A program made the position numbers and the translations under genes. The notes beneath the pieces were generated by a model. That model was not told the origin of the DNA, searched no databases, and saw only the letters and a list, made by a program, of their open reading frames with translations. 64,000 bases of DNA from Escherichia phage UE-S5b, in sequence record PP301341.1. The stretch is one strand, 5' to 3'. Below are positions 2,454-64,000 of this stretch, one piece after another (positions within the stretch are counted from its first letter, which is position 1; every line of letters begins with the position of its first letter).

Positions 2454-2744
2454 TCACATCGTCACCATCATCCGAACACTATCTTTGCTTCGCCTGACGG
2501 AGACACTATGAGGTAATTTTGTGAAGAACACAAGAGCTGAAAGTCTCTTTTCTAAAGAGTAAGTTTCTCTTGGTTCTAAGATCTTAATGCCTGGACGATT
2601 CTCTAACAGCATCATCCCAGCTAATTCATGGTAGGAATCTTCATCATGTGTAATGATAATATCATCTGAAAGAATACCAGCCTTGGTATGGTCTAGTTCT
2701 TTGTATTCATCTTTGGAGTCGTGGACTCTCATATAGATTCTCAA
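2454..2744 (-). CDS. hypothetical protein, paralog family member
   Basis: 96-aa ORF with IIITHDEDSYHELAGMMLLEN motif; first gene of the minus-strand block, divergent from the late module. Confidence 0.5.
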   Translation of the reverse strand: MRIYMRVHDSKDEYKELDHTKAGILSDDIIITHDEDSYHELAGMMLLENRPGIKILEPRETYSLEKRLSALVFFTKLPHSVSVRRSKDSVRMMVTM

Positions 2745-2915
2745 ATGTTACTCCTTTTAGGAATAGGGTCATCGGAACATTACATACTATTTAGTATCAT
2801 GAACTTTTTCTATATCATGACTAAAGTGTAACTGTATGGTATGGTTTCTTCAAGGGGTAACTCACCCCAAGAAAAGAATCTTCTTTAATAGACATAACTT
2901 TGTAGCGAGATAAGT

Positions 2916-3605
2916 ATGAGTGAACTAACTAAGCAGCAGATTGTTAATGCCCTACCTGCTAACTTCAAGAACAGTGTAACCCAGGAGTTGGTGGACACGA
3001 TCAACAACATTACCCAAGACCAACTGGTTGCTGAGTCCTTCCGTGAAAACTTTATCTCCTACTCTGGTGTAATGAAGGAAGGTAAGTTTAAGACACAGGA
3101 TTACATGAATGCAGTTCAGTATGTGACTTACAAACATATGGGCTATTCAAATAAGGAAGCCTACTTCAAAACATTCCCTAACCGACAGGCAGAACTTGTA
3201 GCACGAGGAACCAGTGAGAAAGATATCAGTGCTTATGTATCTGCTTACCATAGGGGTAAATTGGTTAACCTCATCATGGAACAAAGTTTGGTTCCAGTGT
3301 GGATTGTGAACCAGGACAATTATCAAAAGGCTATCAACGTTCAGGTTGAACTAATGACCACAGCAGCAAGTGAGAAAGTAAGATGTGATGCAGCTAACTC
3401 TATCCTTACTCACTTGGCTAAACCGAAAGACCAGGTAACGAANATCAATCTGGACTTNAGAGAGAACTCCGGNTTAACTGACCTCAAGGCAACACTTGCT
3501 GCATTGGCTGAACAGCAGATTAATGCAATCAATAGTGGAGTACCTACTAAAGAGGTTGCTGGTTCTAAACTAGTACGTGCAGATGAGGACATTACAGATG
3601 TCTGA
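2916..3605 (+). CDS. putative terminase small subunit / DNA-packaging accessory protein
   Basis: 229-aa ORF immediately upstream of, and coupled to, the terminase large subunit (ATGTCTGA overlap). Assignment is by position only. Confidence 0.45.
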   Translation: MSELTKQQIVNALPANFKNSVTQELVDTINNITQDQLVAESFRENFISYSGVMKEGKFKTQDYMNAVQYVTYKHMGYSNKEAYFKTFPNRQAELVARGTSEKDISAYVSAYHRGKLVNLIMEQSLVPVWIVNQDNYQKAINVQVELMTTAASEKVRCDAANSILTHLAKPKDQVTXINLDXRENSXLTDLKATLAALAEQQINAINSGVPTKEVAGSKLVRADEDITDV

Positions 3606-5187
3606 GTTAATTAAACAGGAACTGGATGAATGGCTGGACCAGGTGGACTACTCCCACCTTAATTCATCTAACTATGTTCCTAGTCAGTTTGCTCTTACCT
3701 TTGCCAACTTTATTAAGTTGGTTAATGGCAAAGAAGGTGAATCCAACAAAACACCTCCAGTTCACTTGAAGATGTTGGATAAGATGATTAGCCCGAACCA
3801 GTATGTAGTTAACCTGTGTTTCCGTGGTGCAGGTAAAACTGCTGTGTTCATGGAGTACTTTACTTTGTTCCTGGCAGTGTTTGGTCATTTACCAAGCCTG
3901 GGTAAGGTAGAAGGAATGATTTACGTATCTGACTCAATGGATAACGGTGCTAAGTCTGCACGTAAGAACATTGAGTTCCGTTACAAGAATAGTGAGTTCC
4001 TTCAGCAATGGATACCTGAGGCTACATTTACAGATAACCTTCTGGAGTTCCGTAATGTAGAAGGACATCGACTTGGTGTTAAGTTGTTTGGTGCTAAGAC
4101 AGGTCTTCGTGGTACGAAGATATATGGTAAACGTCCAACACTCTGTGTACTGGATGACTTGATTAGTGATGGTGATGCTAACTCCAAGACAAGCATGGAA
4201 GCTATTAAGGATACCGTCTATAAAGGTGTGAACCATGCTCTTGACCCAACCCGTCGTAAAGTAATTTTCAATGGTACTCCCTTTAATAAGGAAGACATTA
4301 TCATTGAAGCAGTTGAGTCTGGTGCATGGGATGTCAACGTATGGCCTGTATGCGAGAAGTTCCCCTGTAGCAGGGAAGAATTTCAGGGTGCATGGGATGA
4401 CCGTTTCTCTTATGACTATATCAAAGCCCAATACGATATGGCAGTTAAGACGGGTAAGCTGGCAGGCTTCTATCAGGAACTTATGCTTCGTATTAGTTCT
4501 GAAGATGAGAGACTGGTTCAGGATAGTGAAATTAGGTGGTATAGCAGACAACAACTATTAAGGATGAAGTCCTGCTACAACTATTACATTACAACTGACT
4601 TTGCTACTTCGGAGAAACAGACCAGTGACTACAGTGTCATTTCAGTTTGGGCTTATAGTTCTAATGGAGATTGGTTCTGGGTTGATGGTGTGGCTAATCG
4701 TCAGCTTATGGATAAAAACTTTGATGACTTATTCCGTCTGGTTCAGGAATACCAACCACAAAATGTTGGGGTCGAAACCACAGGTCAACAAGGTGGATTC
4801 ATCTCACTCCTTCAAAAAGAAATGATTAACCGTAATGTCTTCTTTAACTTTGCATCCTCTGAAGGTGGTAAGCCAGGCATACGTCCTGTAACCTCTAAGC
4901 TGTCACGCTTTAACCTGGTAGTTCCATGGTTCAAAGCTGGTAAGATGTACTTCCCGGAAGAGTTGAGAGATTCAACTATTATGGGTTTGTTCATGGGCCA
5001 GATTAAATTAGCTACCATTAATGGAATCAAAGGTAAGGATGACTGTATTGATACTATCTCTATGCTGGGTTATCTCAATCCCTGGAAACCACAGGCAGGT
5101 ATGACTATGGTGGATAACAAGGGTGACCCGATGTGGGACGATGAAGAAGAAGATAGTGTTAACCCCCTACGTTCATATATTGTGTGA
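3598..5187 (+). CDS. terminase large subunit
   Basis: About 530 aa; P-loop-like FRGAGKTAV near the N-terminus, acidic LCVLDDLISDGD segment, C-terminal nuclease-like region. Start taken as ATG 3598 (track begins at a GTG at 3577). Confidence 0.7.
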   Translation: MSELIKQELDEWLDQVDYSHLNSSNYVPSQFALTFANFIKLVNGKEGESNKTPPVHLKMLDKMISPNQYVVNLCFRGAGKTAVFMEYFTLFLAVFGHLPSLGKVEGMIYVSDSMDNGAKSARKNIEFRYKNSEFLQQWIPEATFTDNLLEFRNVEGHRLGVKLFGAKTGLRGTKIYGKRPTLCVLDDLISDGDANSKTSMEAIKDTVYKGVNHALDPTRRKVIFNGTPFNKEDIIIEAVESGAWDVNVWPVCEKFPCSREEFQGAWDDRFSYDYIKAQYDMAVKTGKLAGFYQELMLRISSEDERLVQDSEIRWYSRQQLLRMKSCYNYYITTDFATSEKQTSDYSVISVWAYSSNGDWFWVDGVANRQLMDKNFDDLFRLVQEYQPQNVGVETTGQQGGFISLLQKEMINRNVFFNFASSEGGKPGIRPVTSKLSRFNLVVPWFKAGKMYFPEELRDSTIMGLFMGQIKLATINGIKGKDDCIDTISMLGYLNPWKPQAGMTMVDNKGDPMWDDEEEDSVNPLRSYIV

Positions 5188-5904: not shown

Positions 5905-8900
5905 ACGCACATACCCCCTTTGATGCAAATCAGGATTGGACCAATCCATATTGTCATAACAGTTCCAATGACCAAATGGTGGATGCACTGCTTGGTAATG
6001 CTTACCATGTGGTTCGTACTGTGTACTGCAACCTGGGTAATCTTAAACTCCTGTATGATTTCCTGAACCAGTATGGGATGGTCATCGGTGTAAACTCTGA
6101 AGAGGAATTGAAGGCATTATCCACGCAGGTTAAATATTCCCGTATCTACGGTTTCTCCCGTGCAGGTGACCGGCAGGTAACTGATTACTTGTACGTAGAA
6201 GGTGATCGTACTGGCATCATCCCAGATGACTCAGAAGCAACTGGTTCGTGGATTACTGTTGCTACTTCTGGTTCCAATGGTGGTGGTACTTCTTCCAGTG
6301 AAGGTGCTTATATTCCTTGGGTATACAGCAATGGTTCTGCTACTGGTGGGGAAACCACAATCAACGTACCAGATGGTACGGTGGGTGTACCTTTCATTAT
6401 TGTTAATGGCGACATGCAGTATGTAGGTCGTGGATTTGAGTTCAACGTAGACAGCCTGTCCGTAACTCTGGCNCAACCTTTAGAGGAAGGNGATGAAGTA
6501 GTATTCCTTCTGACTGGTGTTCCTGCTGTACCGGATAATCCTAACATTAATGACTGGATTCAGATCAATTGGTTGTACAACAATGGTGCTGCTGTAGGGG
6601 GTGAGCAGGTTATTGCTATTCCGTATACCTTCCAGTCTATTCCGGCTGTGTATAAGAATGGTCTTCGTTTGTATAAAGGATTAACTACTGAGTCTTATAC
6701 TGCTGACCCAGATAACCAACGTATTTTTCTTACCGAACCACTGACAACCAATGATCGTTTGATAGTACAGATTGGTGGTGAAGCACGAGTATTGGAAGCA
6801 ACAGATCGTACTCTACAGGAAGTGGCTCGTGCGGCTAATGTAAAAGATTCTGAGGTTATTCTCAGTACTAATACAGTACAATCCTTAAATAACAAAAAAG
6901 TTATTTATAATCCCGATAATCAGCAGATTTACGTTATTCCAGAATTACCAACTAATGTGTATATATCCAGCGTAGTTGGTAATATCCTTACATATACTCC
7001 AGGTAACATTCAGGTTGAGTTACTAACCAAAAAAGAAACTGACCAAAATACCCTATGGCGTAATCAGGGAGATGTCCGTGGTTGGGGTGTTAAAGGGGAC
7101 GCTGTGCATGATGATACAGTAGCATTAACGAACGTATTAAACGACACACCAGTTGGACAAAAGATTAATGGCAATGGGAAGACATATAAGGTCACATCCT
7201 TGCCTGATATTAGTCGATTCGTCAACACTCGTTTTGTTTATGAGCGTATTCCTGGTCAGCCGCTTTATTATGCCTCTGAAGAATTTGTTCAGGGCGAGCT
7301 TTTCAAAATAACGGACACCCCTTATTACAATGCGTGGCCACAGGATAAAGCGTTCGTTTACGATGATGTTATTTACTGCCCGTTCATGGCTAGTGATAGA
7401 CATGGGGTCAGCAGGCTGCATGTATCCTGGGTTCGTTCAGGGGATGACGGACAGACCTGGACAACGCCGGAATGGTTAACCGACCTACATCCTGATTACC
7501 CGACAGTTAACTACCACTGTATGAGTATGGGGGTGATGCGTAATCGTCTCTTTGCGATGATTGAGACACGTACTTTAGCATCTAACGCACTGGTGACCTG
7601 TGAGATATGGGACCGTCCTATGTCCCGTAATTACCATCCGACAGGTGGTATCACAAAAGCCGCTAATCAGCCTGTGGCTGTAATTACTATTCCTGACCAT
7701 GGATTGTTTGCCGGAGATTTTGTTAACTTCTCGAACTCTGGGGTGACTGGTGTTTCGGGGAATATGACTGTAACTTCAGTTATTGACCGCAACACATTTA
7801 CTGTCACCACGCCAAATCAACAGGAATCTGACCAAAATAACTCTACCAAAGTCTGGCATATGGGGACATCGTTCCACCAGTCACCTTGGCGTAAAACCAA
7901 CCTTGGACTGATTCCCATGGTTACCGAGGTTCACAGTTTTACCGCCATCAATAATGATTCATTTATGATGGGATATCACCAGGGTGATGCTGCTCCACGT
8001 GAAGTTGGTATGCTGTATTTCCCGGATGCATTTAACAATCCTGGGCATTATATAAAACGACGTATCCCTGCTGAATATGAGCCAGATGCGGCAGAACCCT
8101 GTGTTAAATATTTTGACGGTGTTCTTTATGTTGTAACCCGTGGAACTCGGTCGGATCGTCTGGGTAGTTCACTACATCGTAGTAACGATTTGGGTATATC
8201 CTGGCAATCATTGAGGTTCCCGAATAATGTCCACCACTCCACCCTGCCATTCGCTAAGGTAGGAAACGAACTCATTCTTTTTGGAACAGAACGTGCGGAC
8301 AACGAGTGGGAAGCAAACGCACCCGACCAGCGATATTTCAGTTCTTACCCGCGAACGTTTTACACACGAGTGAACTTAGACACCTGGAATCTGGATAATA
8401 CTCAGTGGGTGAATATCACTGACCAGATATATCAGGGTGGCATTGTCAACTCTGGCGTTGGTGTTGGCTCAGTGGTTGTTAAGGATAGTTATATCTATTA
8501 CATGTTCGGTGGGGAAGACCATCTGAACCCCTGGACATATGGAGATAACTCATCGAAAGACCCATTCAAATCAGATGGTCATCCATCAGATTTGTATTGC
8601 TACAAAATGAAGATTGGTTCAGACAATCGTGTTTCCAGGGATTTCAGATATGGTGCTGTACCTGACAGAGCTGTCCCCGTGTTTTTTGATACAAATGGGA
8701 TTCGCACTGTTCCTGCTCCAATGGAATTTACAGGAGATTTGGGTTTAGGTCATGTGACCCTTAGAGCCAGCACCAGTAGTAACATTCGCTCTGAAGTTTT
8801 AATGGAAGGTGAGTATGGGTTTATCGGGAAATCTGTACCGACTAATAACCCAGCAGGGCAGCGCATCATATTTTGCGGGGGAGACGGAACCAGTTCTTCT

Positions 8901-9548
8901 ACTGGTGCACAGATTACGCTTTACGGTGCGAGCAACACAGCTTCTCGCAGGATAGTTTACAACGGAAATGAACATCTGTTTCAGGGTGCTGATGTTAAGC
9001 CTTATAACGATAACGTCATTGCGCTTGGTGGACCAAGTAACCGTTTCACCACTGCATACCTCGGAAGTAACCCTATTGTTACTTCTAACGGGGAGAAGAA
9101 AACAGAGCCGGTAGTTTTTGATGATGCTTTCCTGGATGCCTGGGGTGACGTTCACTACATCATGTACCAGTGGTTAGATGCTGTTCAACTGAAAGGCAAT
9201 GATGCTCGTATTCACTTCGGGGTTATTGCTCAACAAATTCGTGATGTATTCATTGCACATGGTCTGATGGATGAAAACAGTACGAATTGTCGTTATGCTG
9301 TTCTGTGCTATGACAAGTATCCACGGATGACCGATACGGTATTTTCACACAATGAAATCGTTGAACACACTGACGAGGAGGGTAATGTCACTACTACGGA
9401 AGAACCTGTATACACCGAGGTGGTTATTCATGAAGAGGGTGAGGAGTGGGGTGTTCGGCCTGACGGAATTTTCTTTGCTGAAGCCGCTTATCAGAGAAGA
9501 AAACTGGAAAGAATCGAAGCCAGACTTTCTGCTCTTGAACAGAAGTAA
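5895..9548 (+). CDS. tailspike / tail fibre with C-terminal intramolecular chaperone (peptidase S74-like) domain
   Basis: 1217 aa; WRNQGDVRGWGVKGDAVHDDT (pectate-lyase-3-like start of a beta-helix); C-terminus PVVFDDAFLDAWGDVHYIMYQWLD...HFGVIAQQIRDVF matches the self-cleaving chaperone module of endosialidase-type tailspikes. Confidence 0.75.
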   Translation: MAMNAHTPFDANQDWTNPYCHNSSNDQMVDALLGNAYHVVRTVYCNLGNLKLLYDFLNQYGMVIGVNSEEELKALSTQVKYSRIYGFSRAGDRQVTDYLYVEGDRTGIIPDDSEATGSWITVATSGSNGGGTSSSEGAYIPWVYSNGSATGGETTINVPDGTVGVPFIIVNGDMQYVGRGFEFNVDSLSVTLXQPLEEXDEVVFLLTGVPAVPDNPNINDWIQINWLYNNGAAVGGEQVIAIPYTFQSIPAVYKNGLRLYKGLTTESYTADPDNQRIFLTEPLTTNDRLIVQIGGEARVLEATDRTLQEVARAANVKDSEVILSTNTVQSLNNKKVIYNPDNQQIYVIPELPTNVYISSVVGNILTYTPGNIQVELLTKKETDQNTLWRNQGDVRGWGVKGDAVHDDTVALTNVLNDTPVGQKINGNGKTYKVTSLPDISRFVNTRFVYERIPGQPLYYASEEFVQGELFKITDTPYYNAWPQDKAFVYDDVIYCPFMASDRHGVSRLHVSWVRSGDDGQTWTTPEWLTDLHPDYPTVNYHCMSMGVMRNRLFAMIETRTLASNALVTCEIWDRPMSRNYHPTGGITKAANQPVAVITIPDHGLFAGDFVNFSNSGVTGVSGNMTVTSVIDRNTFTVTTPNQQESDQNNSTKVWHMGTSFHQSPWRKTNLGLIPMVTEVHSFTAINNDSFMMGYHQGDAAPREVGMLYFPDAFNNPGHYIKRRIPAEYEPDAAEPCVKYFDGVLYVVTRGTRSDRLGSSLHRSNDLGISWQSLRFPNNVHHSTLPFAKVGNELILFGTERADNEWEANAPDQRYFSSYPRTFYTRVNLDTWNLDNTQWVNITDQIYQGGIVNSGVGVGSVVVKDSYIYYMFGGEDHLNPWTYGDNSSKDPFKSDGHPSDLYCYKMKIGSDNRVSRDFRYGAVPDRAVPVFFDTNGIRTVPAPMEFTGDLGLGHVTLRASTSSNIRSEVLMEGEYGFIGKSVPTNNPAGQRIIFCGGDGTSSSTGAQITLYGASNTASRRIVYNGNEHLFQGADVKPYNDNVIALGGPSNRFTTAYLGSNPIVTSNGEKKTEPVVFDDAFLDAWGDVHYIMYQWLDAVQLKGNDARIHFGVIAQQIRDVFIAHGLMDENSTNCRYAVLCYDKYPRMTDTVFSHNEIVEHTDEEGNVTTTEEPVYTEVVIHEEGEEWGVRPDGIFFAEAAYQRRKLERIEARLSALEQK

Positions 9549-58174: not shown

Positions 58175-58414
58175 TTACTTACGACTTCCTTCTACGAAAA
58201 GTCGTATTTGTTTTTTCACTTCTTCTTTCTCACGTATTGCTTCGTAGTCACGAGCAAAGTAGTAAACACACCATAATCCAATTTCACTTACAAAGAACAG
58301 AATACTAGCTCGAATGAACTGCATATCTGTTTCTACTACAAAGGCAACTTTGTATGCGTAGGTAAGTGTTAATAGGGTACTAATTAGCATTGCGTACAGA
58401 GCTAGTTTTTTCAT
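58175..58414 (-). CDS. small membrane protein
   Basis: 79 aa with two hydrophobic segments (LALYAMLISTLLTLTYAY; ILFFVSEIGLWCVYYF); ATGA overlap with the ThyX-like gene. Confidence 0.4.
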   Translation of the reverse strand: MKKLALYAMLISTLLTLTYAYKVAFVVETDMQFIRASILFFVSEIGLWCVYYFARDYEAIREKEEVKKQIRLFVEGSRK

Positions 58415-59355
58415 TCAGTAATAGTCTCACCAGGAATTAACTTACGGAATTGGATAAAGTGAAGCAGGTTACCTGAGTACAGATTCCCTTCTTTATCCAT
58501 GGATGTAACACCTTGTTCCCATGTAACTGGGTTCATGTTATTTACATACTTCTCACCAAGGTTCATAGGTGTAGCCTGATGTTCCGTTGGGGAAGCATGA
58601 ATAGGTTGGTTTTCCACTAACTTAGCGAATAAGCCAAGGTCTTCCTCGATAGTAGATGGTCGTCCTTCGAAGTTGTTATAGGAAGCACGAGCACAGCGTG
58701 CAGCACTTACTTTGAGAAGTAGTCCATGCACTTCTGCATCACTTGGTTCATCGCGTGTAACTCGATTGCGTTTGCAGAAATTGTAAGCCCCAACACGGTC
58801 AATATGAGCAATNTANGGCANATGCCATTGCCCATATGGTAATGCTCTNGGTGTNCTTTCTTCCTGTGCCTTACGCATTGCTTGAGCCAGTTCACGAATC
58901 TCTGGTTGTGCATCTTTGTGGTCACGCAGTCCATAGAAATTAGCCCAGCTGGTTGAAGTTACCACTACACGAATATGCGTGAATGGTTCCAGAATACGGT
59001 TAACAATCTGCTTATGTACTTGCCCACGTCGTAGCTGTTCTGCATACACAGCAGCAGCAGATGCAGCGTTATCCCAGATAAACTTAGCATCCTCAATCTC
59101 CATAGGAGTGAGTTCTTCTTCTGCTTGCATACCTTTCTGGTTCTTGCCCCAGTGACTAGGCATCACTGGTTCATTACGAACTTGTTCGATGAACTTAGCC
59201 GTGGGAATAGCACGACTGCTTGANGCATTACGGTTGAATACACGGTGNGTCATAAACTCACTGTGAATGAATCGGGGATAAACCAATTCAAAGGTAGTAA
59301 TACGAGTTCCTGTTTCTGGGTGAACGGAATCTGCAATGACAGTTGCCTTAATCAT
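58411..59355 (-). CDS. flavin-dependent thymidylate synthase (ThyX-like)
   Basis: 314 aa; xHRVFNRNxSSSRAIP fits the ThyX RHR-x7-S signature if the ambiguous residue is R (N-masked codons). Confidence 0.45.
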   Translation of the reverse strand: MIKATVIADSVHPETGTRITTFELVYPRFIHSEFMXHRVFNRNXSSSRAIPTAKFIEQVRNEPVMPSHWGKNQKGMQAEEELTPMEIEDAKFIWDNAASAAAVYAEQLRRGQVHKQIVNRILEPFTHIRVVVTSTSWANFYGLRDHKDAQPEIRELAQAMRKAQEEXTXRALPYGQWHXXXIAHIDRVGAYNFCKRNRVTRDEPSDAEVHGLLLKVSAARCARASYNNFEGRPSTIEEDLGLFAKLVENQPIHASPTEHQATPMNLGEKYVNNMNPVTWEQGVTSMDKEGNLYSGNLLHFIQFRKLIPGETITE

Positions 59356-59750: not shown

Positions 59751-60131
59751 TTAGTATTTACTACCTCTTCTATACCAAGGGTAATGATGGGTAGTGCTCT
59801 TGCCTTTGAATACATCCTTAGTACGAGGATTCTTTTGTATTTGAGCCAGGTAAAGATACGTATCATCCCTACATGGGCTAAGCCAGAACTTATCTATGAT
59901 TCGGTCTACCTTAGATTTCAGATGAGGTTCCGGAGGAATGTATGAAGGAAAAGGTCTGCTAATAGTCCATCCTTTTTGAACAAGAGCCTGCATTGTCGTG
60001 TAAAGATCTAACTCAATTTCATTCTCTACTTGATCATGGATAGTTTTACCTAGAGTAAGCATTGCAGTTTGTTCTAGCTTACTTAAGTCCAGCCCTTGCA
60101 GGATAGACTTACCATTTTGTCTGCTTGACAT
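59751..60131 (-). CDS. hypothetical protein
   Basis: 126-aa ORF. Confidence 0.4.
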   Translation of the reverse strand: MSSRQNGKSILQGLDLSKLEQTAMLTLGKTIHDQVENEIELDLYTTMQALVQKGWTISRPFPSYIPPEPHLKSKVDRIIDKFWLSPCRDDTYLYLAQIQKNPRTKDVFKGKSTTHHYPWYRRGSKY

Positions 60132-60225
60132 AAGAGTACCTGTAAATAAAAAAGCCCACGGGTTAGGTGGGCTTGGGTTAGGAGATGGATAAGCAATGAG
60201 CTGGAAGTAACTTCCACAAGCATCA

Positions 60226-60492
60226 CTATGTAATGATGCTTAGGTTAGTTACTCTGANTTTACTGCCACCATTGGTTTGAACAACAGTTACGTTTGTAAC
60301 TTGGTTCTGACCTTTGTTGGACAGTGACCAAATCAGTGCTACTACCCAGAAGACTAAAGACCAGCCTAATACAATATTAAGCACACCAATGCCCCACTTG
60401 GAGGCATGGCCTCGTGCAAAAGCAATGATAGTAGGGATGAGGTATACAGCTAATACAAACAACATAACAAGGATTGCTGCTAAAGATTCCAT
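60226..60492 (-). CDS. Imm-like superinfection-immunity family membrane protein (candidate)
   Basis: About 88 aa from MESLAAIL (AGGAA RBS); two TM segments and a C-terminal NIVLGWSLVFWVVALIWSL motif resembling the conserved LGW...GW..AL.W signature recalled for this family. Confidence 0.45.
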   Translation of the reverse strand: MESLAAILVMLFVLAVYLIPTIIAFARGHASKWGIGVLNIVLGWSLVFWVVALIWSLSNKGQNQVTNVTVVQTNGGSKXRVTNLSIIT

Positions 60493-60565
60493 GATGGTTC
60501 CTATGTGAGGTTGAGTTAGTTTCTTCACAAATAGCCCAACTATGCTGGGCTATTTAGGCAGCTAC

Positions 60566-60775
60566 TTACTCAGCATCTTTGCTTGCAGGAGCAAGAGCTT
60601 TCTTCAGGTAATTGCGTACTGAACGATAGGTTTCTTTAGTATCCATAGCACTATCATTTACGAAAGTGATACGTGCACAATCAGACAGCGGAATCTGCTC
60701 CACTGCAATTACATTTGCAGCATTAATGGTTACACGTACATCTGAGGTTGCATGAGTTACTTGAAATACTGACAT
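60566..60775 (-). CDS. hypothetical small protein
   Basis: 69-aa ORF; hairpin TAGCCCA-N7-TGGGCTA lies just downstream. Confidence 0.35.
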   Translation of the reverse strand: MSVFQVTHATSDVRVTINAANVIAVEQIPLSDCARITFVNDSAMDTKETYRSVRNYLKKALAPASKDAE

Positions 60776-60805
60776 GTTGTTTCCTTAATTAAGCCGGATA
60801 GCCTT

Positions 60806-61312
60806 TTATTTTGAAGGTCTAGCAGCTACTGGTTTGTTTTCCTGATTCTGATACTTACCATTGTAATTAGCAGGTTCTTGAACCAGATGAAATAATACTT
60901 GAGCTATCCCAGCACCAGCCGGGATATGCAATTTCTTACGACCGTGATAGACCAGTTCGAGGGTAAGATACCCTTTCCATCCTGGTTCTATTACGGTATT
61001 GAACACTGATAATGCACGTCTTGCCCATGTAGACTTATCGTGAACGATTGCTACACAGGACGGGGACATGTTGAACTTCTCAATTGCTGAGGCCAAGGCG
61101 AACTTACCGAGATGGCGTGATACTTGATTTCCATCAACGACTTTCACCATTGGAATCAGCCCAAATAAGCGATAGAAGGTAATATCTTGTTTGATACGAA
61201 TATCATAACCAGCTTCACCTAATCCATAGCTTACACCATGCTCTGATACCTTATGGTCTGGGACATCCAGCAACTGAGATGAACGGTATAGAGAATTACC
61301 ATTAACAACCAT
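60806..61312 (-). CDS. dCTP deaminase / dUTPase-superfamily protein
   Basis: 168 aa; GLGEAGYDIRI and VFNTVIEPGWKGYLTLEL resemble the beta-barrel nucleotide-binding motifs of this superfamily. Confidence 0.55.
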   Translation of the reverse strand: MVVNGNSLYRSSQLLDVPDHKVSEHGVSYGLGEAGYDIRIKQDITFYRLFGLIPMVKVVDGNQVSRHLGKFALASAIEKFNMSPSCVAIVHDKSTWARRALSVFNTVIEPGWKGYLTLELVYHGRKKLHIPAGAGIAQVLFHLVQEPANYNGKYQNQENKPVAARPSK

Positions 61313-62487
61313 TATTTCATTCCTTTAGGGATATGAACTACCTCCCCAAAAGGTACGGTAGCATTGGGATTATTCAGAACACACCAGATGATAGGAATAT
61401 CAAATGGTAATTCTTCCATTGGACGAACATACATATCGGAGAATATGATTGCAGCGGTTGGTTTATTCTTAATAATCCACTCGCGTACTGGTTCCAGGTT
61501 TGTACCACCACGACCGGTAATCTTAATCTCTTCAAAAGTATCTTCTTCAGTGATGTCTATCTCTTCTTGGATAATATCGTCGAAGGTAATTAAGGACATC
61601 TTCTTAGGATTGAACTGGCTCTTAACGTAGGCAACCTCTGAGTTAAAACGCAGAGAGTCAGCACTACTAATAGAACCAGATACATCCTCAAAGTAGGCTA
61701 AGTGTCGTAAGCGTCCTTCATCATCTTCCATGGAAGGTAGATAGATGTCAGTAAAACGACGGTTAGGTCTGGCCCACGTATAATGAGTATCGTCAATGTC
61801 GGTAAAGAAGTTCATGAGGACTTCCTGCCATGGAACCACTGGTTTAAGGAATTGGGTAATAACCTCTTCCATACGACCAGCACCCTTACCGGGCATCTGT
61901 CCACCAGCCATTTTCTGGCTCTGCATTGCTCGTACTACGTTGTTGACGACAGCACCCTGGGACTGCCCCGAAGTGGGGGATTTCATGTCGCCAGCAAGAC
62001 CTGCTCCAGCACCCCCTGACGGCTTCTGCCTTTTCTGAGGGTTCTTCATCAGGTCATCGTAGATGTCTTCTTCGACCCATCCTTTATATTGAGGGTCTTT
62101 GCAAATACCTTTATCAATGCCAGTGAACTTATAACCATCTTCTTCTAACTGAAGGTTAATGAAGTGGTCACACGCCTGGTTCCAGATTTCTGGGTCACGG
62201 CTTCCACGACGGATGCCATGCAGATATGCCACATGCCAAAGTTCATGCATTAACACTGTTTCTCTGGCATCTGGACACATCCAGATAAAGAAATCTGGAT
62301 TGAAGTGAAGTTCTATCCCATCAGTACATGCAGTGGGACAATTCTCACGTTTCCATGAGAACTTAAGACTACATAGTAATGAACCAAAGAACGCAGCACT
62401 GCGTCCGAGAAATGCGTTGGCCTGTATTCTATCGTATTCCCTCATTAACTGTTCATCAGTGAGGTTATGTGGTGGTATGTTATTCAT
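61312..62487 (-). CDS. VWA-domain protein with N-terminal HExxH metallopeptidase-like domain (partner of the MoxR-type ATPase)
   Basis: 391 aa; MHELWHVAYLH (HExxH) in the N-terminal half; MIDAS motif DVSGSIS (DxSxS) in the C-terminal half. Confidence 0.6.
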   Translation of the reverse strand: MNNIPPHNLTDEQLMREYDRIQANAFLGRSAAFFGSLLCSLKFSWKRENCPTACTDGIELHFNPDFFIWMCPDARETVLMHELWHVAYLHGIRRGSRDPEIWNQACDHFINLQLEEDGYKFTGIDKGICKDPQYKGWVEEDIYDDLMKNPQKRQKPSGGAGAGLAGDMKSPTSGQSQGAVVNNVVRAMQSQKMAGGQMPGKGAGRMEEVITQFLKPVVPWQEVLMNFFTDIDDTHYTWARPNRRFTDIYLPSMEDDEGRLRHLAYFEDVSGSISSADSLRFNSEVAYVKSQFNPKKMSLITFDDIIQEEIDITEEDTFEEIKITGRGGTNLEPVREWIIKNKPTAAIIFSDMYVRPMEELPFDIPIIWCVLNNPNATVPFGEVVHIPKGMK

Positions 62488-62963
62488 TAAGATGCTCCAT
62501 GATTTATATGGTAACCCAATAATTTTTCTGCTTCCTTTCTGGCTGTAATGGCCTCTTGTTTACTGTTAAACTTTCCTAAGTAAATTTGTTTACCATTATC
62601 ATTTATATGGGCAGCCCAGATTTTATCTCGGGTGTGCCAGTAAACTCCTGTCACACCTGATGTATTTGTAATTCTCTTGGTTTGATTTTTGCAATTAATC
62701 GAGTTTGTTACTAAACGGAAATTGCTTGGGTAATTATTTAATCTATTATGGTCAATATGGTCTACCTGCATACCGTCAGGAATTGGTCCAATCTCCATTT
62801 CATAAATTATGCGGTGAACTAAATGCATTTTCTTGTTACATTTAACACGCAAATACCCACTGTTATCCAAACAACCGGCAATGGCACCTGCTTTTACGCA
62901 GCCCCTGCTTACTTTCCAGTAGAGGGAACCATTGCTATAAACAAATAGTTCATGCCAATTCAT
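62487..62963 (-). mobile_element. HNH-AP2 homing endonuclease gene inserted between the VWA and ATPase genes
   Basis: 158 aa; HNH core LVHRIIYEMEIGPIPDGMQVDHIDHNRLNN; C-terminal AP2-like GVYWHTRDKIWAAHINDNGKQIYLGKFNSKQEAITARKEA; start and stop abut both neighbours. Confidence 0.7.
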
Positions 62964-62967
62964 TATT

Positions 62968-64000
62968 TTATCCGTGAATGTAACGAGAGATATTAGCAGC
63001 AGCCTTACGCCATTCAGGTGTAGCCTGAAGTTCTGGCAATGCTCTGCCTACTGTACGGAAGTACAGAATCTTATGGGTGAACGTTTTAAAGCGTTCAATG
63101 TACTGAAGAACATCAGAGAAGTTTTCTTCAGTAGTTTTGTTAGCCAGGTGGTTAACAGTAGCCCAACACAGGTTGTTATCTTCCGGTAGTGCACAGCCCA
63201 GAGGGTCTTTGACTACTTTCTCAATCGTAATCATACGATTGTATACCTGAGTGAATTGAACAAACTCTGTAGCCTTACCAGCAGTAACATGTCCTGCGTA
63301 GTAGATAGAATCTTCATCTGGCAGAGCACCTTCAGGACGGTTCTTGAGGTCTTTGTTAACAAAGTCCCAGGTGCGTGGGCAACAGAACGTTTTGTTCTTA
63401 TGGGCTGGGTCGAAGTCATGCAGATAACCTGGGTTAGCATGTAAGAATGCAACCAGACGTTCATCCCATTCTTGTGGAATCATTACATCTTCAACAAAGA
63501 TGTCGAAGTTAAGTTCCATTTCGAAGTGAACCACGCGAGACTGCATTGCAGTGCCCAGTGGGTTAACAATGGCACGGTCAGTAGCTTTGTTACCAGCACA
63601 TATAATCATCACATTAGGATGGAGTTTTTTCTGACCAGTCATACGGTCCAGAATCAGTTTGTATGCAGCAGCTACTACTTCTTTTCTGGCTGAGTTGAAC
63701 TCATCAAGGAACAGGAGCCAACCATTATATCCTTCCGGTATCTCATCCCCCTCAATAGGGAATAAGTCAGCGAATGGGATAAACTCTGCACGGTCACCAT
63801 TACGGAATGGTAGACCAGACAAATCCTCTGGGGCAGAAGTAGACAGACGATGGTCTATCAGTTTCATACCAAATTCTTCTGCAACAGAGCGAATAATTGC
63901 AGATTTACCCATTCCCGGTGATGAAGTCAGGAACGGTACGTTACCTGCTTGCAGGGCACGGATAATAAAGTTACGGGCCTGACGTGTATTACATACGGTC
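62968..64000 (-). CDS. MoxR-like AAA+ ATPase (N-terminus beyond the window end)
   Basis: Walker A ...TSSPGMGKSAII; Walker B WLLFLDEFN; the ORF stays open upstream of the track start at 63912 through to the window end. Confidence 0.65.
   Translation of the reverse strand, partial: TVCNTRQARNFIIRALQAGNVPFLTSSPGMGKSAIIRSVAEEFGMKLIDHRLSTSAPEDLSGLPFRNGDRAEFIPFADLFPIEGDEIPEGYNGWLLFLDEFNSARKEVVAAAYKLILDRMTGQKKLHPNVMIICAGNKATDRAIVNPLGTAMQSRVVHFEMELNFDIFVEDVMIPQEWDERLVAFLHANPGYLHDFDPAHKNKTFCCPRTWDFVNKDLKNRPEGALPDEDSIYYAGHVTAGKATEFVQFTQVYNRMITIEKVVKDPLGCALPEDNNLCWATVNHLANKTTEENFSDVLQYIERFKTFTHKILYFRTVGRALPELQATPEWRKAAANISRYIHG

Follow-up and report, generated by a model that had tools for sequence, protein, structure and literature searches.

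The gp24–gp25 gene pair of an N4-like Escherichia phage: a MoxR-like AAA+ ATPase and a zincin-like VWA protein

Genes of the locus and their N4 orthologues

The genes of a MoxR-like AAA+ ATPase and of a zincin-like protein with a VWA domain were analyzed in a stretch of 64,000 nucleotides (nt) of Escherichia phage UE-S5b (PP301341.1), referred to here as the window, whose positions serve as coordinates throughout. Coding between 60.8 and 64.0 kb of the window is confined to the minus strand and comprises four genes, running 5′ to 3′ on that strand from the AAA+ ATPase through a homing endonuclease and the zincin–VWA protein to a dCTP deaminase:

62968..>64000, minus strand: MoxR-like AAA+ ATPase, orthologue of N4 gp24, 350 aa (open reading frame [ORF]; residues 8–350 and the stop codon lie in the window)
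62487..62963, minus strand: free-standing HNH_3 plus AP2 homing endonuclease, orthologue of G7C gp24.1, 158 aa (Pfam)
61312..62487, minus strand: zincin-like plus VWA protein, orthologue of N4 gp25, 391 aa (ORF, Pfam, and the G7C record)
60806..61312, minus strand: dCTP deaminase, orthologue of N4 gp26, a downstream neighbor that provides context and does not belong to the pair (Pfam DCD 4e-16, sequence, and annotation)

A preliminary description of positions 61312–64000, made from the sequence alone, had reported an ATPase gene and a VWA gene. Both ORFs were found as described, but the interval holds three genes, the HNH plus AP2 homing endonuclease between the pair having been missed, and the ATPase gene runs past the end of the window. 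Of its 350 codons, 343 fall within the window and the first 7 lie past position 64000; the full-length gene was taken from the identical phage UE-S5a.

Over its 3 kb, the region shares 100% identity with Escherichia phages UE-S5a (Gamaleyavirus, Schitoviridae) and UE-M3 and 92.5% with vB_EcoP_G7C (Gamaleyavirus, Schitoviridae), whose record lists gp24 (ATPase), gp24.1 (HNH), and gp25 (VWA-like) with the remark “similar to gp24 / gp25 of Enterobacteria phage N4.” The pair in the window consists of the Gamaleyavirus (G7C-like, N4-like) orthologues of N4 gp24 and gp25, and these names are used below. Orthology to N4 and G7C is direct, with identical gene order and strand, and the wider neighborhood is shared as well (RNAP1/2 … gp17 … gp24, gp25, dCTP deaminase gp26, the flavin-dependent thymidylate synthase ThyX gp30, and rIIA/B); in N4 the pair adjoins nucleotide-metabolism genes. 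As compared to N4, the window phage, like G7C, carries the additional gp24.1 homing endonuclease between the two genes, with no functional difference. N4 genes 24 (“unknown”) and 25 (“vWFA domain”) belong to the 14-member core gene set of N4-like phages and have been described as middle-gene transcripts (PMC4193335).

The ORF at 62487..62963 matched Pfam HNH_3 (2.6e-18) and AP2 (2.8e-7), PHROG 99, and the PADLOC homing endonuclease model. When the window was aligned with the HNH-free phage PGN829.1, the ATPase stop codon of the latter was found to be followed by 4 nt and then by the gp25 ATG, and the HNH ORF of the window and of G7C is placed exactly at this junction. Judged from the alignment, the homing endonuclease is a precise insertion between the partner genes and not a part of the machine that they are proposed below to form. 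The gene is missing in PGN829.1, ECBP1, and numerous further Gamaleyavirus relatives, and ∼40 related records align to the region in two pieces with 81–86% coverage, consistent with lack of the insert. By gene arrangement, the gp24–gp25 locus is a homing hot spot, that is, a recurrent target of homing elements.

Related arrangements were seen in more distant records. In phage U1G, an HNH gene annotated “phage intron” splits the ATPase gene (2669..3609 of the fetched stretch), and an I-HmuI-like gene splits the ATPase match of Pseudomonas phage ZC08. In the Acinetobacter element NZ_CP110465.1, the pair is separated by five small ORFs, one of them an HNH gene (6996..8956 of the fetched stretch). 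This element (A. baumannii pRBH2-3, 75,126 bp) is filed as a non-mobilizable plasmid; it encodes a phage-type single-subunit RNA polymerase, a toprim protein, an AAA ATPase, an HNH gene, and a VWA-like gene, and it appears to be the genome of an N4-like phage submitted as a plasmid.

The genes of the string are tightly packed. A 4-nt spacer separates the ATPase stop codon from the homing endonuclease ORF, while the homing endonuclease stop and the gp25 start share one base (TAATG) at 62487, as do the gp25 stop and the dCTP deaminase ATG at 61312 (also TAATG); these two overlaps suggest translational coupling. Sigma-70 promoter-like sites were fewer in 60000..64000 than in shuffled sequence (5 versus 10.3), a count that is uninformative because N4 middle promoters are of another type. 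Downstream, an 8-bp GC-rich hairpin followed by a T-run (60174..60152, minus strand) resembles an intrinsic terminator and is the first convincing site of this kind after the ATPase–HNH–VWA–dCTP deaminase string. The ThyX ORF (58411..59355, minus strand), orthologous to N4 gp30, has several X in its translation, reflecting N bases in the window.

Conserved domains and residues of gp25 and gp24

Features within the two proteins, with metal ion-dependent adhesion site abbreviated as MIDAS, are as follows:

61729..62439, minus strand: gp25 DUF2201_N putative metallopeptidase domain, residues 17–253 (Pfam E 3.3e-56)
62218..62250, minus strand: gp25 MHELWHVAYLH, matching HExxHxxxxH (H81, E82, H85, and H90; sequence)
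61987..61989, minus strand: gp25 linker residue D167 (conservation)
61330..61701, minus strand: gp25 VWA domain, residues 263–386 (Pfam DUF2201 “VWA-like,” E 1.7e-34)
61672..61686, minus strand: gp25 MIDAS D268-x-S270-x-S272 (DVSGS; sequence)
61501..61503, minus strand: gp25 MIDAS T329 (sequence)
61435..61437, minus strand: gp25 MIDAS D351 (sequence)
63901..63921, minus strand: gp24 Walker A P-loop SPGMGKS, residues 34–40 (K39; sequence)
63694..63711, minus strand: gp24 Walker B FLDEFN (D106 and E107; sequence)

Homologues of gp25 numbered 942 in a set of 5.8 billion proteins, the top 120 sharing 47–96% identity and many of them sitting on contigs of ∼70–77 kb, and an exhaustive search matched 13,349 cluster representatives at 50% identity. 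Conservation was scored in 20 phage homologues, in 150 distant representatives, and in 82 bacterial ORFs, 80 of which aligned at the catalytic and MIDAS positions. All 20 phage homologues retain H81, E82, H85, D107, and E140 in the N-terminal half and D268, S270, S272, T329, and D351 in the C-terminal half. Across the representatives, every MIDAS position was conserved in 150/150 except T329 (149/150), and the bacterial copies retain the DxSxS residues in 80/80, T329 in 79/80, and D351 in 77/80. The HExxHxxxxH residues of the representatives were H81 in 140, E82 in 136, H85 in 141, and H90 in 136. When representatives and bacterial copies were considered together, H81, H85, H90, and D107 were nearly universal; the catalytic Glu at the E82 position was present in 136/150 and 71/80, respectively. 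The preliminary description had assigned both a VWA domain with MIDAS and an HExxH metallopeptidase-like N-terminal half, and had named domain searches as a possible refutation; these searches, together with the residue counts above, support the VWA and putative metallopeptidase domains of gp25.

Neither single-sequence nor profile searches of solved structures returned a sequence relative of gp25, and its fold was examined in an AlphaFold2 model. The N-terminal part (predicted local distance difference test [pLDDT] ∼90) consists of three short strands followed by a helix (residues 72–87) bearing HExxH, the order of strands and helix expected of a zincin, as predicted in a model of moderate confidence. 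The compact zincin-like portion spans residues ∼30–150, with H90 and D107 as candidates for the third metal ligand, and the C-terminal half assumes a Rossmann-like VWA fold. Between the two lies a Gly/Ala/Gln-rich linker modeled with low confidence (∼150–260), which holds D167. Although the linker is otherwise variable, 121/150 representatives and 71/82 bacterial copies retain this Asp. Speculatively, D167 could serve as a MIDAS ligand in cis or as a latency switch.

In PHROG 1314, the gp25 family bears the description “HNH endonuclease,” a label that has been copied in dozens of RefSeq phage genomes and appears as the product name in many of them. The chance that gp25 is an HNH endonuclease is vanishingly small, and this candidate was rejected: no HNH Pfam model matches the protein, DUF2201_N and DUF2201 account for its whole length, its C-terminal half has a VWA fold, and the true HNH genes are separate ORFs, often beside or inside the gp24 and gp25 genes. 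These nearby HNH ORFs probably seeded the wrong name. On the domain matches, the label is a propagated annotation error, and it needs correcting in both PHROG and RefSeq. Examples from RefSeq are NC_070871 (813..1988 of the fetched stretch) and NC_027399 (3938..5323 of the fetched stretch).

Searches with gp24 yielded 2943 homologues in the same 5.8-billion-protein set; matches in such numbers lie well outside chance for either protein. Both nucleotide-binding motifs named in the preliminary description are present at the positions listed above. G38, K39, and S40 of Walker A are invariant in 25 phage homologues, and K39 is found in 64/64 aligned bacterial orthologues. D106 and E107 of Walker B are likewise invariant in the phage homologues; bacterial orthologues have D106 in 66/66 and either E or D at position 107. 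N144, R162, and R216 are invariant in the 25 phage homologues and in every aligned bacterial orthologue. Walker A, Walker B, sensor 1, arginine finger, and sensor 2 thus all appear intact, R162 being the putative arginine finger and R216 the putative sensor 2 by position only. By these alignments, the catalytic residues of both proteins are under strong constraint.

Assignment of gp24 to the MoxR type, also made in the preliminary description, held for the orthologous group but not for the window protein taken alone. Pfam matches among 42 gp24 orthologues were to AAA_5 in 36 (best 1e-11), AAA in 30, AAA_3 (the MoxR model) in 19 (best 6e-9), and bpMoxR in 5. A profile of the orthologues aligned by hhalign to Escherichia coli RavA with 87.6% probability over 194 columns, extending through the lid and the PRSW/DRRW motif, as compared to 61.9% over 81 columns for a ClpX control. 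Foldseek did not tell AAA+ clades apart with gp24 as the query, and the sole match in a solved-structure search was midasin (9.6e-5). A MoxR-type identity is thus supported, with modest margins. In the gp24 model, residues 59–99 form a long insert that separates strand 2 from Walker B and contains an invariant DHRLSTSxPxDxxGLP block, with pLDDT <50 at residues 63–82, and a strand pair (131–133/137–144) precedes sensor 1; this layout is consistent with the helix-2 insert and pre-sensor-1 β-hairpin of MoxR-clade ATPases, the insert itself being poorly modeled. The family also has a long conserved helical C-terminal extension (∼170–350) with a KTFCCPRTW motif. NCBIfam gave no match for the ATPase, the homing endonuclease, or the zincin–VWA protein.

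Distribution and synteny of the pair

Among phage records, 696 contain the gp25 family and 806 the gp24 family, with matching genus profiles. Relatives of gp25 occur in N4-like phages of many hosts and in the jumbo phages K64-1, PA5oct, 7t3, and fHe-Yen9-04. The ATPase gene lies directly upstream of the gp25-like gene in K64-1, and cyanophage S-TIM54 has the order Hsp20, MoxR-like ATPase, gp25-like protein. In rV5-like phages, only the N-terminal peptidase portion of gp25 is matched, with a MoxR ATPase gene ∼4 kb away.

Bacterial relatives are also numerous, with at least 585 loci in GTDB genomes encoding a gp25 relative; 80 fetched loci provide the counts given here. A gp24-like ATPase gene was found upstream on the same strand in 70/80 (E 1e-24 to 1e-70 for most), and most of the other 10 loci have too little upstream sequence to tell. 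The surrounding genes are of mobile-element type, including integrase, Rad52, RadC, AbiEi/AbiEii, Mom, Sipho_Gp157, PD-(D/E)XK nuclease, DUF4942, and DUF5983. The gp25 family is furthermore present on 92 plasmids, such as Synechocystis pSYSA, where the two-gene form is found and NCBI names the ATPase “MoxR family ATPase.” Synteny, with the ATPase gene upstream of the zincin–VWA gene, holds across phages, plasmids, and bacterial islands.

A third gene encoding a DUF3150-like protein (∼290 aa) accompanies the pair in 56/80 bacterial loci, mostly placed between the other two and at some loci preceding or following them; examples are at 3991..4929 and 8013..8942 of fetched bacterial loci. A search with a hidden Markov model built from 55 bacterial sequences yielded no such gene from the window or from the portions of related phage genomes that were fetched (E ≤ 10), and the protein has no PHROG or PDB relative. 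PADLOC, which covers known anti-phage defense systems, gave no match for gp25 or for the plasmid three-gene module and holds no model for any component of either; the ATPase returned only a non-significant DolB match (E 0.006, 13.8 bits).

On a Burkholderia pseudomallei conjugative plasmid, the three-gene module is directly upstream of virB11/B2/B3/B4, traI, and traD. Linkage to type IV secretion system (T4SS) genes was considered as a general rule and rejected, being limited to 6/80 bacterial loci, all in Burkholderia or Paraburkholderia. Three unrelated phage lineages, namely S-TIM54, K64-1, and the window phage, encode a thymidylate synthase (ThyX or ThyA) within a few kb on the downstream side of the pair; this proximity may be a coincidence among early and middle genes.

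Proposed mechanism, alternatives, and known systems

The domain identities and fold, the conservation of catalytic and ligand residues, and the two-gene synteny described above provide the setting for a mechanism in which gp24 and gp25 would interact and act on a client protein by proteolysis. With slightly better than even confidence, gp24–gp25 is proposed to be an ATP-driven, MIDAS-targeted remodeling and cleavage machine. In this model, gp24 is a MoxR-clade AAA+ ATPase, probably a hexameric ring, and the gp25 VWA domain would dock on the ring, as in the solved NorQ–NorD VWA complex (PDB 9qh8), and/or grip the client via MIDAS. The MIDAS metal site would capture an acidic residue of the client, ATP hydrolysis would remodel or expose the client, and the N-terminal HExxHxxxxH zincin-like domain would then cut it. 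The whole would constitute a two-polypeptide, ATP-dependent, substrate-targeted metalloprotease or remodeler, in which MoxR, VWA, and zincin parts combine to follow the logic of FtsH. We infer ring–VWA binding, MIDAS capture, remodeling, and cleavage from known MoxR–VWA pairs, which act as chaperone and co-chaperone (PMC7159879), and from the fused peptidase of jumbo phages (PMC7824862).

Several observations weigh against this mechanism. The window ATPase alone matched only the generic Pfam AAA model (28.8 bits), with AAA_5 at 17.5, under its cut-off of 22, and AAA_3 also below cut-off. The AlphaFold2 model of gp25 as a whole is of moderate confidence only (pLDDT 75, predicted template modeling score 0.54). 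The sole cross-family signal for the peptidase domain, a SprT-like/M48 match, was sub-threshold and obtained with one homologue only. Literature searches on N4 gp24/gp25, DUF2201, DUF3150, phage MoxR–VWA, and CRISPRi-ART/transposon screens found no experiment on any member, in agreement with the earlier statement that the function of such pairs in phages is not established; the relevant items found were a core-gene listing with a middle-gene description (PMC4193335) and a 2021 jumbo-phage prediction (PMC7824862). Lastly, I, L, or T replaces the catalytic Glu in 9/80 bacterial copies that keep H81, H85, H90, D107, and MIDAS. These homologues appear to be pseudo-peptidase variants, and hydrolysis is therefore not universal in the gp25 family.

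Retention of the metal-ligand positions in the Glu-less homologues also fits a metal-insertion chaperone, reminiscent of NorQ/NorD, CoxD/CoxE, and CobS/CobT-type chelatases, in which the pair would load metal into a client enzyme and HExxHxxxxH would hold the metal without hydrolysis. Characterized MoxR–VWA pairs often drive metal-cofactor insertion (PMC7159879, PMC9976466, and PMC13036017). Such a role is nonetheless improbable for gp24–gp25, as the catalytic Glu is present in 20/20 aligned phage homologues and in 136/150 representatives, Pfam groups the domain with metallopeptidases, and the weak cross-matches are solely to the peptidase families SprT-like and M48. Nor does an obvious conserved metalloenzyme client stand beside the pair across phages, plasmids, and islands.

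For the proposed remodeling and cleavage machine, the client is more likely an intracellular protein of mobile-element establishment or replication, or part of a DNA-translocating machine, than a capsid-specific substrate, because the module occurs in virion-less plasmids and islands as well as in virulent phages and is expressed in the middle phase in N4. The corresponding alternative is virion morphogenesis, in which the pair would act as a chaperone in assembling tail, portal, or internal virion proteins and would trim structural proteins. This has been proposed for group 2.2 jumbo phages, and a MoxR–VWA pair is needed for tail development of the Acidianus two-tailed virus (PMC7824862). The pair adjoins virion structural genes in K64-1 and S-TIM54, in the latter together with Hsp20; in G7C-type genomes, a few genes separate the pair from the upstream head-decoration gene gp17; and the Burkholderia plasmid module adjoins T4SS genes, which encode another large DNA-translocating assembly. 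A morphogenetic role is nevertheless doubtful. Plasmids and chromosomal islands that make no virions also carry the module, T4SS genes are near only 6/80 bacterial loci, and N4 gp24 and gp25 are middle genes outside the late structural block (PMC4193335). Homologues of gp24 and gp25 are likewise not among the entries of the virion mass-spectrometry table of N4-like roseophages in PMC4193335.

As a tentative possibility, the proposed gp24–gp25 machine could be the minimal phage form of a widespread mobile-element machine composed of a MoxR ATPase and a zincin–VWA metalloprotease, usually joined in bacteria by the DUF3150-like subunit. It would handle a protein in establishment or replication of incoming DNA or in assembly of a translocation apparatus, and would be essential to all N4-like phages. 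gp24 and gp25 are as conserved in N4-like phages as DNA polymerase, portal, and terminase, and the wider family, spread over phages, plasmids, and bacterial islands, amounts to >13,000 sequence clusters. Knowledge of the client on which this presumed ATP-driven protease acts would close a gap in the understanding of a phage family that is widely employed in therapy research, and would also explain a common mobile-element module.

The pair, its architecture, and its genes are already known: they are identical to deposited and annotated genes, are covered by Pfam and PHROG models, belong to published core genes, and share a described fused architecture. Judged against the literature searched, points that may be new are the predominance of the three-gene form in bacteria together with absence of the third gene in the phage sequence examined, the universal MIDAS as opposed to a catalytic Glu that is dispensable, the conservation of an Asp in the linker, the targeting of the locus by homing elements, and the systematic “HNH endonuclease” mislabel.

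Among systems with the same parts, the bacterial and plasmid three-gene module (AAA ATPase, DUF3150-like protein, and DUF2201 “VWA-like domain-containing protein”) shares gene order and catalytic residues with the phage pair, at 24–33% identity for the ATPase and 25–35% for the zincin–VWA protein. The phage examined here has the two-gene form, as does pSYSA, whereas bacteria usually add the DUF3150-like gene. In group 2.2 jumbo phages, a MoxR-like ATPase is paired with a protein that begins with a metallopeptidase and has a vWA domain at its C terminus (Iyer et al. 2021, PMC7824862), the same architecture as gp24–gp25, although the jumbo-phage gp25 homologues share only 22–33% identity and are longer (∼430–460 aa). 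This fused architecture was predicted to join chaperoning with proteolysis, and the role in virion assembly is likewise a prediction of that study (PMC7824862).

RavA–ViaA, NorQ–NorD, CbbQ–CbbO, and midasin share the AAA+ clade with gp24, and they resemble the phage pair in having a C-terminal VWA domain with complete MIDAS and an ATPase gene directly upstream. Unlike gp25, these characterized MoxR–VWA partners are without a zincin domain, and the gp24 C-terminal extension (∼170–350) does not align to RavA beyond the lid. FtsH and Wss1/SPRTN–Cdc48 each couple an AAA+ motor to an HExxH zincin, a likeness to gp24–gp25 in logic only; to our knowledge, there is no homology beyond the superfamily level. 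In the phage pair, the gp24 motor and the gp25 peptidase are separate polypeptides, which the VWA/MIDAS domain would bridge.

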